Source: an uncultured Actinomycetes bacterium
GTDB lineage: Bacteria; Actinomycetota; Actinomycetes; S36-B12; CAIYMF01
Assembly: GCA_963843975.1 (NCBI GenBank)
Contig: CAWJMG010000003.1
Span: 2,370,001 to 2,402,000 of the forward strand
Reading direction: 5' to 3'
Length of the DNA: 32,000 nt
The notes below the pieces were generated by a model that ran no database searches, was not told where the DNA came from, and saw only the letters and a list, made by a program, of their open reading frames with translations. Each line of letters opens with the position of its first letter. Position 1 is the stretch's first letter. This document shows, piece after piece, positions 9,173-14,774 of this stretch. Both the position numbers and the translations under genes were made by a program.

Positions 9173-10135
9173 TCAGCCGAAGACGCCGGGCGTCACGCGG
9201 ACCGCGCCGACAGGCTCGCCGCCACCGAGCAGCGTGAGCTCGTCGAGCTCCGCCAGCACCGGGGCGTCCACGCCGAGCGCACGGAGCGCGGCGGCGAGCA
9301 GCAGCGGCCGTGCGCGCGTCGATCCGTCGTCGACCTTGAGAGCCACGGCGCGGCCGTCGGCGAGGGCCGCGGCGTACACGCCCTCGGCGCCGTCCTTCAC
9401 CAGCAGCCCCGGCACCCCGGCCATGAACGCAGTGGCGTCGTGGCCGTGCCCGCCGACGTACGCCGGGTGCGCGCGCATCGCGTCGGCCACGAGCCGCTCG
9501 GGCGAGCCGGCCTCCGCGGTGACGCAGCGGGCGAACGATCGGGCGAGCGCCGTCAGGGACATCGAGACGACCGGGGCGCCGCAGCCGTCGACCCCGACTG
9601 CGGCCGCGCCCTCGCCTGAGATCCTCGCGATCGTCGCGGTGAGGTGCTGCTGAAGCGGGTGATCGACGGAGCGGTAGTCGTCGAGAGGCCAGCCCTGCGC
9701 GACGCAGGTGGCGAGCATCGCCGCGTGCTTGCCCGAGCAGTTCATGAGGATCGGAGCGGCGTGCCCGCCGGTGCGCACCAGCCCCTCGCGCGCCTGCTCC
9801 CCCAGCGGCCAGTCAGCAGGGGTGCGGAGGTCGCTCTCGGAAAGGCCTGCGGCAGCGAGGATCTCGCGGACGGCCACGAGATGGTGGGGCTCGCCCCAGT
9901 GCGAGGCGGCCGAGATCGCCAGATGGGCGTCGCGCCCGGGGTAGCCGAGCTCGACCATCCCCGCGGCCTGCATCGGCTTGCTGGACGAGCGCGGGAAGAC
10001 CGGCGACGTGATGTCGCCGAGAGCGTGCAGCACCGAGCCGTCGGAGTCGAGGACGACGAGGGAGCCGCGGTGCACCCCCTCGACGAAGCCGCTGCGCACG
10101 ACCTCCGCGAGGACGACGGAGGAGCGGTCAGGCAC
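9173..10135 (-). CDS. Asparaginase (L-asparaginase II / PF06089-like family)
   Basis: C-terminal 320 aa of ORF 9173..10666(-). Motifs are FPRSSSKPMQA, NCSGKHAAML, VDGCGAP and KDGAEGV. The GTG at 10135 overlaps the upstream stop by 8 nt. Confidence 0.82.
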   Translation of the reverse strand: MPDRSSVVLAEVVRSGFVEGVHRGSLVVLDSDGSVLHALGDITSPVFPRSSSKPMQAAGMVELGYPGRDAHLAISAASHWGEPHHLVAVREILAAAGLSESDLRTPADWPLGEQAREGLVRTGGHAAPILMNCSGKHAAMLATCVAQGWPLDDYRSVDHPLQQHLTATIARISGEGAAAVGVDGCGAPVVSMSLTALARSFARCVTAEAGSPERLVADAMRAHPAYVGGHGHDATAFMAGVPGLLVKDGAEGVYAAALADGRAVALKVDDGSTRARPLLLAAALRALGVDAPVLAELDELTLLGGGEPVGAVRVTPGVFG

Positions 10136-10685
10136 CGGGCGGGGCGGTGAGCAGGTCGTCGACGCTGGCCAGGCCCTCGCGGTAGCGGCGTCCGATCTCG
10201 GCCTGGAAGAAGTCCACGACGTGCTGGACCTCGCGACGGACCTCCGACACCTCGTGCTCGGTCTCGAGCAGGGCCTGGATGCCGGCGACGAGCTCGTCGT
10301 CGGAGAGGTGCGAGACGTCCGACAGCTCGGTGTCGGCGACGATGGCCTCCTCCTTGCGCCGGTGCTCGTCGAGCCGGCTGGGCTCGGTGTGCATGTGACG
10401 GCCGCTGCCGTGGGTGCTGCGCTGGCCGGGCCCGGCGAGGATCTGGGGAAGGGCGTCGATGATCGAGCCCTCCATGGTGCCGTCACGGCGCGCCTGCTCG
10501 GCACGCAGCAGGTCGATGCGCGCGATGAGCTTGGACCGGTTGTGGGAGAGGTCGGTCTCCTCCTGGTCCGCATCGGCCCGGCGCTCGCGCACCTCGGCCA
10601 TGGTGAGCTCCTCGACGCCCTGGACGAACGCGGGGTCGAGCACGCGGTCGACGCGACGGCGTCCACCCGGCATCGGCTTGGTCAT
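10128..10685 (-). CDS. RsiG-family protein (c-di-GMP-dependent anti-sigma-WhiG-like)
   Basis: 185-aa ORF with N-terminus PGGRRRVDRVLDP. It has two helical motifs: ETDLSHNRSKLIARID (Gln replaced by Ile) and EHEVSEVRREVQHVVD, a perfect E-x3-S-x2-R-x3-Q-x3-D. Confidence 0.72.
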   Translation of the reverse strand: MTKPMPGGRRRVDRVLDPAFVQGVEELTMAEVRERRADADQEETDLSHNRSKLIARIDLLRAEQARRDGTMEGSIIDALPQILAGPGQRSTHGSGRHMHTEPSRLDEHRRKEEAIVADTELSDVSHLSDDELVAGIQALLETEHEVSEVRREVQHVVDFFQAEIGRRYREGLASVDDLLTAPPGA

Positions 10686-11536: not shown

Positions 11537-11663
11537 CGTGGCACGTCCGGCACCGCCCGCGACGACGAGTCGGCCCCGAGCGCTCAATCCCACGGGGTTG
11601 TCGGCCGAAGAGCACTACAGCGCCCGGACTGGGCGCGCGGGCGAACGACGGAGGAGGTCAGGC

Positions 11664-14600
11664 GTGCCTGACGGCGGCTTCACGGCCCGCGTGGACAGCC
11701 TCCTGCTCGAGCTGGCCTCGCAGGAGGCCACCGGCTGCCTCATCGTCACCGAGCCCCAGGGCGAGCAGTCGACGGTGTGGTTCCGGGACGGCTACGTCTA
11801 CGCGGTCTCGGTGCCCGGTCGCCGGCCCCTGCTCGGCGTCCGCCTCATGTCCTCCGGCGTCCTCACCCCCGAGGCCCTCGCCGAGGCCCTCGAGGTGCAG
11901 CGCACCGAGCTGCAGGGCTGGCGCCTCGGCGAGCTCCTCGTCCACCTCGGGTTCGTCGACCGCGCCGTGGTCGAGTCCTTCGTGTGCGAGCAGGTCCGCG
12001 ACCAGGTCGCCGACCTCCTGCACTGGCAGGTCGCCGAGAAGAAGTTCCGCAACGGCAAGCGCACCCGCCAGGATGTCGCCCCGCCGATGGAGGTCACCGA
12101 GCTGCTCGGTGCCGCCCGTCGCCGCGACGAGCAGTGGGCCTCGATCGTCCCATTCATCGGCGGAGCCGACGCCGTCCCCGTGCTCTCCACCGCTGCCCCG
12201 GCCGCGCCGGACGTCGTCCTCGGCCCCTACGACTGGGCCCTGCTGTGCAAGGTGGACGGCAACCGCACCATCGCCGACCTCGCGGACGACTGCGGCTTCA
12301 CCATCTTCGAGGCGGGCATGGTCGTCGTCGGCCTGCTCGAGGCGGCACTGGTCCAGATCGACGGCGGCGAGGCCGAGGAGCCGAGCACGCCGTGGTGGAA
12401 CGAGGACAACCCCTCGGACGCGGACGTCGCCGCCTCGGTCGCCAAGGTCACCGCGGCCCTCACCGACATGGGGATGCCGGCCGCGCCCTCACCGTTCACC
12501 GCCGCTCCCCTGCGCGGCTCCCGCACGACCCACCAGCCCGAGCGCACGTCGCCCTTCTCCAGCGCGCCGGCGCCGCAGCTGGCCGAGGTCGTGTCCCTCG
12601 ACGCCGAGCGCGAGGCCCGGGACGAGGTCGATCGGATCGAGGCCGAGCGCGCGGAGGCCGACCGCGTCGAGGCTGAGCGCATCGCCGCCGAGGACGAGTC
12701 CGCACGCCTCGAAGCCGAGCGCCTCGAAGCCGAGCGCCTCGAAGCCGAGCGCCTCGAAGCAGAGCGTCTCGAGGCCGAGCGCATCGCCGCCGAGGAAGAA
12801 GCCGCACGCATCGAGGCCGAGCGCCTCGAAGCCGAGCGCCTCGAAGCCGAGCGCCTCGAAGCAGAGCGCCTCGAAGCAGAGCGTCTCGAAGCAGAGCGTC
12901 TCGAGGCCGAGCGCATCGCCGCCGAGGAAGAAGCCGCACGCATCGAGGCCGAGCGCCTCGAAGCCGAGCGCCTCGAAGCCGAGCGCCTCGAAGCAGAGCG
13001 TCTCGAAGCAGAGCGTCTCGAGGCCGAGCGCATCGCCGCCGAGGAAGAAGCCGCACGCATCGAGGCCGAGCGCCTCGAAGCCGAGCGCCTCGAAGCCGAG
13101 CGCCTCGAAGCAGAGCGTCTCGAAGCAGAGCGTCTCGAGGCAGAGCGCCTCGAGGCAGAGCGCATCGCCGCCGAGGAAGAAGCCGCACGCATCGAAGCCG
13201 AGCGCCTCGAGGCTGAGCGTCTCGAGGCTGAGCGTCTCGAAGCCGAGCGTCTCGAGGCAGAGCGCCTCGAGGCAGAGCGCATCGCCGCCGAGGAAGAAGC
13301 CGCACGCATCGAGGCCGAGCGCCTGGAAGCCGAGCGCCTGGAAGCCGAGCGTCTCGAAGCAGAGCGCCTCGAAGCAGAGCGCCTCGAAGCAGAGCGCCTC
13401 GAAGCAGAGCGCCTCGAAGCAGAGCGCCTCGAAGCAGAGCGCCTCGAAGCAGAGCGCCTCGAAGCAGAGCGCCTCGAAGCAGAGCGCCTCGAAGCAGAGC
13501 GCCTCGAAGCAGAGCGCCTCGAAGCAGAGCGCCTCGAAGCAGAGCGCCTCGAAGCAGAGCGCCTCGAAGCAGAGCGCCTCGAAGCAGAGCGCCTCGAAGC
13601 AGAGCGCCTCGAAGCAGAGCGCCTCGAAGCAGAGCGCCTCGAAGCAGAGCGCCTCGAAGCAGAGCGCCTCGAAGCAGAGCGCCTCGAAGCAGAGCGCCTC
13701 GAAGCAGAGCGCCTCGAAGCAGAGCGCCTCGAAGCAGAGCGCCTCGAAGCAGAGCGCCTCGAAGCAGAGCGCCTCGAAGCAGAGCGTCTCGAAGCAGAGC
13801 GTCTCGAAGCAGAGCGCCTGGAGGCCGAGCGTCTCGAGGCCGAGCGCATCGCCGCCGAGGACGAGGCCGCACGCATCGAGGCCGAGCGCCTGGAAGCTGA
13901 GCGTCTCGAAGCAGAGCGCATCGCCGCCGAGGAAGAAGCCGCACGCATCGAGGCCCAGCGCCTCGAAGCCGAGCGCCTCGAAGCAGAGCGCGTCGAAGCA
14001 GAGCGCCTGGAGGCCGACCGTCTCGAGGCCGAGCGCATCGCCGCCGAGGAAGAAGCCGCACGCATCGAGGCCGAGCGCGTCGAAGCAGAGCGCCTCGAAG
14101 CAGAGCGTCTCGCTGCGGCGGAGGCTGCCGAGCAGCTCGCCCGCGAGGAGATGGCGCGCTGGGCGGCCGAGGAGGCCGAGCGCGCGGCGATGATCGAGGC
14201 GCAGGCGACGTACGAGCGCGAGCAGGCCGAGATCCTCGGCCGCGGCTTCGCCGAGCCCGTCCCGACGCTCGAGGACAGCCCGTGGGGGACGCCGGCCACC
14301 CTGGATGCGCCCGCCGCGTTCCACCCCGACGAGGAGCTCGCCCCCGCAGCGTCGGTGTCCTTCGCCGACGTGTACGGCGGGTCCGACTTCACCGAGGTCG
14401 ACGCTCCGGCGGCGTACCTCGACCTCGACGCGCCGGTCGAGCCCGAGCAGCTCGTGCCCGAGATCGCCGAGATGCCCGAGCCGGTCACCGTGCCCGCCGC
14501 ACCTCGCTCGACGCCCGACTACAGCGGCGGCTTCGTCGTCTCGCCCGAGATCGCCCAGCCCGGTGCCTCCGAGGGCGCCGACATGGCCGCGCTGCTGCGC

Positions 14601-14774
14601 GAGCTGTCCAGCCTCAACAGCGGCGCCGGCGACTCCGAAGGCGTCACCGCCCGTCCGGGTGTCGCGGGCATGTCGCCGGTCGGCTCCGGCGGCCAGCAGG
14701 GCCAGACGGTCACGCGCCCGGTCCAGGCCGCGGACAGCAAGACCAAGAAGAAGAAGGGCTTCTTCGGGCGCTGA
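11664..14774 (+). CDS. DUF4388-domain protein with a ~500-aa ERLEA pentapeptide repeat region, an acidic Pro-rich C-terminal region and a polybasic GFFGR tail
   Basis: ORF 11280..14774(+). The GTG at 11664 follows GGAGGAGG. The N-terminus ([26 protein letters not shown]...[12 protein letters not shown]) resembles DUF4388. High GC3 and a consistent frame continue through the repeat. Confidence 0.85.
12600..14111 (+). repeat. In-frame 15-bp tandem array (~70 AERLE units) with nine 42-bp punctuation motifs; 28 base-perfect units at 13356-13775
   Basis: Direct reading. GAAGCAGAGCGCCTC is repeated without change from 13356 to 13775. Flanking units differ at synonymous positions. GAGCGCATCGCCGCCGAGGA(A/C)GA.. 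motifs start at 12675, 12777, 12909, 13026, 13158, 13275, 13842, 13914 and 14031. Confidence 0.97.

Follow-up and report, generated by a model that had tools for sequence, protein, structure and literature searches.

In the genome of an uncultured, Longivirga-like member of the Actinomycetes, we identified 28 consecutive, identical copies of a 15-bp unit, GAAGCAGAGCGCCTC, each encoding the pentapeptide EAERL, inside the gene for a 1036-residue protein with an N-terminal PATAN/MshEN head, a long repetitive rod and a basic tail. The gene lies in a window of 32,000 nt (the whole stretch of DNA that we analysed; positions 2370001-2402000 of contig C3 in a 4.19-Mb genome of three contigs), and all coordinates are those of the window unless stated otherwise. 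We consider it likely that the tract is a young and genuine expansion of an in-frame minisatellite, in a helical spacer that tolerates differences in length, and that the tract is unstable and polymorphic with little or mild effect on the protein. In this reading, a unit type that normally occurs as one copy between units of two other types (A between B and C) would have been amplified to 28 copies in the sixth of nine higher-order repeats, by either replication slippage or unequal sister-strand recombination. The added 140 residues would lengthen a highly charged, predicted single helix of ~550 residues that joins the head, probably a sensor of cyclic di-GMP (c-di-GMP), to the conserved tail. 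Such expansions would be tolerated because selection holds the EAERL peptide and constrains the length of the spacer only loosely, and the perfect core would often gain or lose whole units, giving a neutral or mildly tuning length polymorphism and no switch. As features go, the tract would be ordinary: a coding tandem repeat seen shortly after it expanded.

Anatomy of the repeat array

The perfect tract is the innermost of three nested features:

12681-14105, plus strand: EAERL array proper, comprising nine higher-order repeats (from the unit map)
13281-13847, plus strand: sixth higher-order repeat, expanded to 36 pentads against 2-6 in each of the other repeats (3-7 if the closing EAER is included) (from the unit map)
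13356-13775, plus strand: 28 identical GAAGCAGAGCGCCTC units (EAERL x28), read directly from the sequence, with perfect periodicity over 13353-13786

As an earlier note on this DNA had claimed, every unit at 13356+15k (k = 0 to 27) is exactly GAAGCAGAGCGCCTC, with no mismatch; perfect 15-bp periodicity extends over 434 bp, or 28.9 units. Tandem Repeats Finder (TRF) described the whole array as a single 15-bp repeat of 95.5 copies (12705-14112) with the top score of all tandem repeats genome-wide, and no other perfect tandem tract in the genome comes near the 434-bp tract in length. Since the runner-up, of 119 bp, has just 3.1 copies, chance can be excluded: the 28-unit tract is present in the assembly far beyond what chance would give.

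The array also has a higher-order organisation that the earlier note did not describe, and the core occupies a defined position in one of its repeats. Each higher-order repeat consists of a 10-residue linker, a number of EAERL pentads and a closing EAER, and the linker DNA is identical in seven of the nine. With letters denoting DNA types, the unit map reads, repeat by repeat:

BBBC. DBBACC. DBBCC. DBBCCE. BFFGE. HJG-A28-CCIK. HL. MBNIO. PAC

Type A is GAAGCAGAGCGCCTC. A single copy is found in repeat 2, between B and C units; in repeat 6, 28 copies occupy the equivalent position and are likewise followed by CC, indicating that the expansion arose in place. One unit type has thus grown where it stood, as slippage or unequal exchange in a short identical run produces, and the locus offers a clean natural example of higher-order array growth in which one unit type ran away. 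The edges of the array look different. Non-synonymous variants had been proposed to occur only near the 3' end, and the Q, V and D variants are indeed confined to the last two higher-order repeats (13920-14105), but the 5' edge (12606-12710, including a DES linker) is degenerate too; hence, both edges have decayed.

Selection on the peptide and age of the core

Neighbouring EAERL units differ only at third codon positions (GAA/GAG, GCA/GCC/GCT, CGC/CGT and CTC/CTG), in agreement with the earlier note. Across the array, 67 of 71 pentads are EAERL, encoded by 12 synonymous DNA types out of 16 types in total, and the four non-synonymous variants fall in the last two repeats. The sister species G004 has 63 EAERL units in 64 consecutive pentads, encoded by 16 synonymous types (17 in total), with a maximum of 5.9 perfect copies; this long, peptide-pure run is old at the DNA level. 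The G004 array (locus L036, 2034-2993, reverse strand) comprises at least 64 pentads, and its one odd type is QAERL. Pooling the variant states gives 12 synonymous against 4 non-synonymous, where the neutral expectation for the synonymous share is 24% (P = 3e-5). Because the DNA types differ synonymously while the peptide stays the same, these comparisons show purifying selection on the EAERL peptide, as had been suggested for the flanks.

Within the core, we counted 0 changes in ~103 synonymous sites, for a 95% upper bound of 0.029 substitutions per site. Measured against the synonymous distance, per lineage, that separates this genome from the nearest sequenced species (synonymous divergence, dS, 0.37, within a range of 0.37-0.41), the age of the core is thereby limited to less than ~16%. 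Given the complete lack of synonymous change, the core is either younger than its flanks or continually homogenised. The earlier proposal of a very recent expansion therefore stands as far as relative youth is concerned; in absolute terms 'very recent' goes too far, since the bound reaches down to ~16% only.

The codons of the core are unusual for this genome. GAA supplies 2.6% of the Glu codons, and GCA 5.2% of the Ala codons, in 1630 long open reading frames (ORFs), although the filter used to select these ORFs (G+C content at third codon positions, GC3, > 0.88) is itself biased against both codons. Because of GAA and GCA, GC3 drops from 0.95-0.96 in the other parts of the gene to 0.59 in the core. 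tRNAs matching both codons are present in the genome. As the two codons are rare, the core is not codon-optimised, and their use is more in keeping with a mutational burst than with optimisation of the sequence. Among the 54 tRNAs that ARAGORN predicted genome-wide, there is one tRNA-Ala with anticodon AGC, an unusual find in bacteria that may be a prediction error.

Spacer length in related genomes

Orthologues are found in 25 of 27 genus genomes. Of the relatives that have a name, Longivirga aurantiaca CGMCC 4.7317 is the closest, with 96% identity in the N-terminal domain. This domain evolves slowly, with a ratio of non-synonymous to synonymous divergence (dN/dS) of ~0.04-0.07. Complete orthologous genes encode from ~500 to more than 1200 residues, and nearly all of the difference lies within the repeat: spacers range from ~50 to more than 700 residues, a more than tenfold span. 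Individual species have homogenised variants of their own (EQERL in G020, an AAEEAARL-type repeat in G022 and a V-rich repeat in G007), and perfectly duplicated stretches of 100-300 bp are present in almost all orthologues, from which we conclude that turnover of the array continues. Spacer length is thus labile between species, and the spacer of this widespread, unstudied, rsiG-linked protein, which is predicted to be helical and whose gene has a WhiG-type promoter-like site (see below), tolerates large changes in length while its peptide composition is held. Since it does so, composition or helicity would seem to matter, and exact length to matter little.

Repeats of this family are hard to assemble. 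A contig ends inside the array in 10 of 22 genus assemblies (G001, G006, G009, G015, G016, G017, G019, G021, G023 and G024; loci L005-L018), and four long-read metagenome-assembled genomes (MAGs; G004, G008, G010 and G050) have frameshifts within it. Gene models of the PATAN repeat family are systematically unreliable, and at this locus of the actinobacterial group gene length should not be trusted without spanning reads. In the orthologue from G049 (L125/L133; the first ~4.2 kb of MAG contig JAIUOK010000014.1), the array is followed in frame by a CheA/ChpA-like Hpt-kinase-CheW-REC protein in place of the tail seen elsewhere, owing either to a genuine fusion or to a chimeric join made at the repeat, close to a contig end.

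We found no second sequence from the same species. The best match in the protein database has 81% identity, and an exact look-up of the protein was negative; the best match in metagenomes of the Joint Genome Institute (JGI) has 82% identity; and the best among species-representative genomes, at 97%, belongs to another species (dS 0.37).

The host protein

The gene and the protein parts that it encodes are as follows:

11664-14774, plus strand: coding sequence of the 1036-residue PATAN/MshEN-rod-tail protein (from the ORF, start-codon context, GC3 and orthologues)
11697-12137, plus strand: PATAN/DUF4388 domain (PF14332; Pfam E = 2.1e-12)
11829-11993, plus strand: two tandem MshEN-type 24-residue motifs (residues 56-79 and 87-110), in the helical insertion of the PATAN domain (from phmmer and motif fit)
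12600-14240, plus strand: predicted continuous alpha-helix, residues 313-859 (AlphaFold2 single-sequence model)
14571-14615, plus strand: conserved C-terminal motif, present in the orthologues compared and in the family consensus
14739-14771, plus strand: conserved basic tail with KKKKGFFGR (KKKxG[FL]FGR is conserved in the family)

The likely start codon is the GTG at 11664, which is preceded by GGAGGAGG, and the stop codon ends at 14774. On inspection, the N-terminus has no visible signal peptide. The PF14332 match scores 47.6 bits against a gathering cut-off of 25, and an AlphaFold2 (AF2) model of residues 1-310 has a mean predicted local distance difference test (pLDDT) score of 84, with each MshEN-type motif on a helix pair. 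Using phmmer, we matched the motif region to the c-di-GMP-binding domains of PilF (6f8l, E = 2.4e-6) and MshE (5htl, E = 2e-3); Pfam did not report T2SSE_N for the protein. The relaxed MshEN motif consists of two tandem 24-residue elements, [RKPN]hGxxhhxx[GAS]hhxxxxhxxxhxx[QNKRYWST] (Wang et al. 2016, PMC5013675). Motif II fits it fully and motif I at all positions but the first, which is Leu; the two are separated by a spacer of 7 residues, and the motif residues are invariant or nearly so across 35 homologues. A Foldseek comparison of the N-terminal model with the Protein Data Bank gave no match at E < 0.1. Taken together, the motif matches suggest that the PATAN/MshEN head is probably a c-di-GMP sensor.

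The rod is predicted by AF2, from single sequence, to form one unbroken helix (H3-549 of the fragment), for the most part at pLDDT 65-90; disorder is predicted for the ~175 residues that end the protein. In (EAERL)n, Glu residues stand at i-3 and i+4 relative to every Arg. The Leu residues, spaced five apart, fall on all seven heptad positions, leaving no hydrophobic heptad seam. Based on this charge pattern, the missing seam and the literature on single alpha-helix (SAH) linkers, which are E/R/K-rich and occur in myosins, INCENP and others (PMC5347031, PMC4183817, PMC5378345), we infer that the spacer is probably a single helix. If it is helical at 0.15 nm per residue, the core would account for ~21 nm of an ~80-nm spacer. 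The basic tail is a possible membrane-targeting end.

On the opposite strand, three ORFs overlap the array (12227-14488, 12489-14324 and 12496-14061; GC3 0.88). They encode EALCF repeats with no domain, and we rejected them as genes because the plus-strand frame has a Pfam domain and conserved ends. Such long, stop-free, high-GC3 minus-strand ORFs are a product of the repeat and a trap for gene callers.

Gene neighbourhood and upstream region

Upstream of the gene, and divergent from it, are a gene for a BKACE enzyme and rsiG (10128-10685, minus strand), the gene for WhiG's c-di-GMP-dependent anti-sigma factor; dtd lies downstream. The order rsiG-(BKACE)-PATAN was seen in essentially all of ~110 related loci, down to 45-50% identity, such that the PATAN gene is the divergent neighbour of rsiG and the BKACE gene is either between them or absent. 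Reading the sequence upstream of the gene, we noted a further element:

11583-11611, plus strand: sigma-28/WhiG-type promoter-like site, CTCAA-N16-GCCGAAGA

The pattern CTCAA-N15-17-[GT]CCGA[TA], which was set only after the sequences had been viewed, is found in 91 of 98 distinct orthologous upstream regions, compared with 0.03 expected from shuffles. Scans for sigma-70 promoters and terminators gave nothing informative. The genome has two FliA/WhiG-class sigma factor genes and ~33 GGDEF genes. With its two MshEN-type motifs and a gene divergent from rsiG, the repeat protein can be regarded as a candidate effector of c-di-GMP that has ties to the RsiG/WhiG circuit.

The 5' leader has a small GC-rich hairpin, GCGCCC-ggact-GGGCGC (11619-11637), between the promoter-like site and the ribosome-binding site. 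It has no Rfam match. A similar element, AGCGCCyGGTGyGGGCGC, is present in many orthologues of the genus.

Alternative explanations

Several points weigh against a young, unstable expansion. Copy number and purity of the core are those of the assembly. More than about six perfect copies were found in none of ~80 orthologues, including ~25 long-read MAGs with the whole gene; we therefore rejected the idea that a long perfect tract is a general property of the family. This outlier status could also reflect polishing of the assembly. Lastly, the core as single-stranded DNA has no hairpin advantage over shuffles (z = +2.1 and +0.6), and we rejected hairpin-driven slippage because the core folds no better than they do. 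On the other side, a single outlier fits a runaway expansion, since slippage rates rise with copy number. In Escherichia coli O157, variable-number tandem repeat (VNTR) alleles with more than 13 units mutate at rates above 1e-4 per generation, by whole units (PMC3777172). By analogy with this work, frequent change in length at the 28-unit core is a reasonable prediction.

We considered whether the array is real and the core an artefact of assembly or polishing, with the number of units wrong or synonymous variants overwritten by the majority unit during consensus building or short-read polishing. The tract is the sole case among ~80 orthologues, and repeats of this family routinely defeat assemblers, as the broken and frameshifted assemblies described above illustrate. 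However, the frame is intact across 3.1 kb and each unit is exactly 15 bp. Moreover, 15 other DNA unit types persist in the array and reach the core directly on either side, and other imperfect arrays in the genome have retained their variants. Because the genome is in three contigs, the reads behind it were probably much longer than 434 bp. We regard an artefact as unlikely.

A second alternative is that the locus is adaptive, a hypermutable and contingency-like tract whose purity is kept because in-frame changes in length usefully vary the length of the rod and the reach between head and tail. The tract is extreme in both copy number and purity, synteny and promoter tie the gene to the RsiG/WhiG c-di-GMP circuit, and the spacer differs greatly in length between species. 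Against this, an in-frame unit has no on/off effect, the protein is cytoplasmic and belongs neither to the cell surface nor to restriction-modification, and a long perfect tract has been kept in no other orthologue. In G004, 64 or more successive EAERL pentads are encoded by diverse DNA, and hence purity is not what selection maintains. We consider an adaptive locus of this kind quite unlikely. In a more specific form, the distance from the head to a membrane-bound tail would vary among the cells of a clone, making the ~80-nm tether a hypermutable 'ruler' whose polymorphism within the RsiG/WhiG circuit is graded, heritable and reversible. We give this version still less credence; if true, such a tether would be the cytoplasmic, in-frame counterpart of contingency loci.

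Finally, that the DNA or RNA of the core is itself functional, as a binding-site array or structured RNA conserved at the nucleotide level, would account for the perfect identity and for the unusual choice of GAA and GCA codons, but it is very improbable: the core folds no better than shuffles, relatives use other DNA for the same peptide and no orthologue has the tract. We rejected an RNA element for want of an Rfam match at E <= 1.

Comparison with known repeat systems

The tract probably belongs to an established class of features, coding VNTRs, and sits in a noteworthy protein family. VNTR loci have highly identical units of 6 bp or more, arranged head to tail, in copy numbers that differ between strains or cells of one species; we observed 28 identical 15-bp units within a 95-copy array, and the length of the array differs strongly between species. 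Bacterial coding VNTR or minisatellite loci, such as those used for multilocus VNTR analysis (MLVA; for example, O157-10 of E. coli O157:H7) and MIRU-type loci, likewise consist of identical units arranged head to tail, and are expected to change by whole units through slipped-strand mispairing, more often as the number of copies increases (PMC3777172). The tract described here differs in that its 15-bp unit is in frame inside a conserved cytoplasmic signalling protein and is nested in a higher-order repeat.

A different comparison had been drawn in the earlier note, which called the tract contingency-like. Our analysis does not bear this out, given the in-frame unit, the cytoplasmic protein and a spacer that varies more than tenfold among orthologues. 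Contingency loci mediate simple-sequence phase variation, for example in Haemophilus and Neisseria. They share with the tract a repeat, hypermutable or predicted to be so, inside a gene; in contrast, the unit here is a multiple of three and lies mid-gene, such that whole-unit changes keep the frame and shift neither frame nor promoter spacing. Nor does the host gene belong to the surface, host-interaction or restriction-modification classes: its product has a PATAN/MshEN N-terminus, and its neighbours are housekeeping genes and rsiG. Hence, the tract is not a classical contingency locus. Because the unit is in frame, there is no on/off switch, and what remains is probably an unstable length polymorphism.

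In-frame repeat number also sets physical length in the collagen-like region of BclA in the Bacillus exosporium, in tape-measure proteins and in the needle rulers of type III secretion systems (T3SS). The likeness to the EAERL spacer is that repeat number sets the length of an extended element. BclA and the ruler proteins serve as rulers outside the cell or in assembly, and their length read-out has been demonstrated, whereas the EAERL protein is cytoplasmic. In sequence pattern, there is a parallel with SAH linkers: the EAERL repeat is also Glu/Arg-rich, places opposite charges at i to i+3 and i+4, has no heptad seam, and is predicted by AF2 to form a long helix joining two functional ends. 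It differs in being a pentad with Leu at the fifth residue and a net charge of -1, in being bacterial and in being far longer (~80 nm).

The head shares its PF14332 match with the PATAN proteins PatA and PixG of cyanobacteria, and its two 24-residue motifs resemble those of the MshEN receptors MshE, PilF and NfrB. Unlike these proteins, it is coupled to no REC or ATPase output domain, having a giant repeat helix and a basic tail instead, and its gene is linked to rsiG in actinobacteria. A paralogous DUF4388 gene is present elsewhere in the same genome (G000:C3:574090-574599 in genome coordinates), with 34% identity and an open frame of ~630 residues, and a second, shorter paralogue is also found in most relatives.

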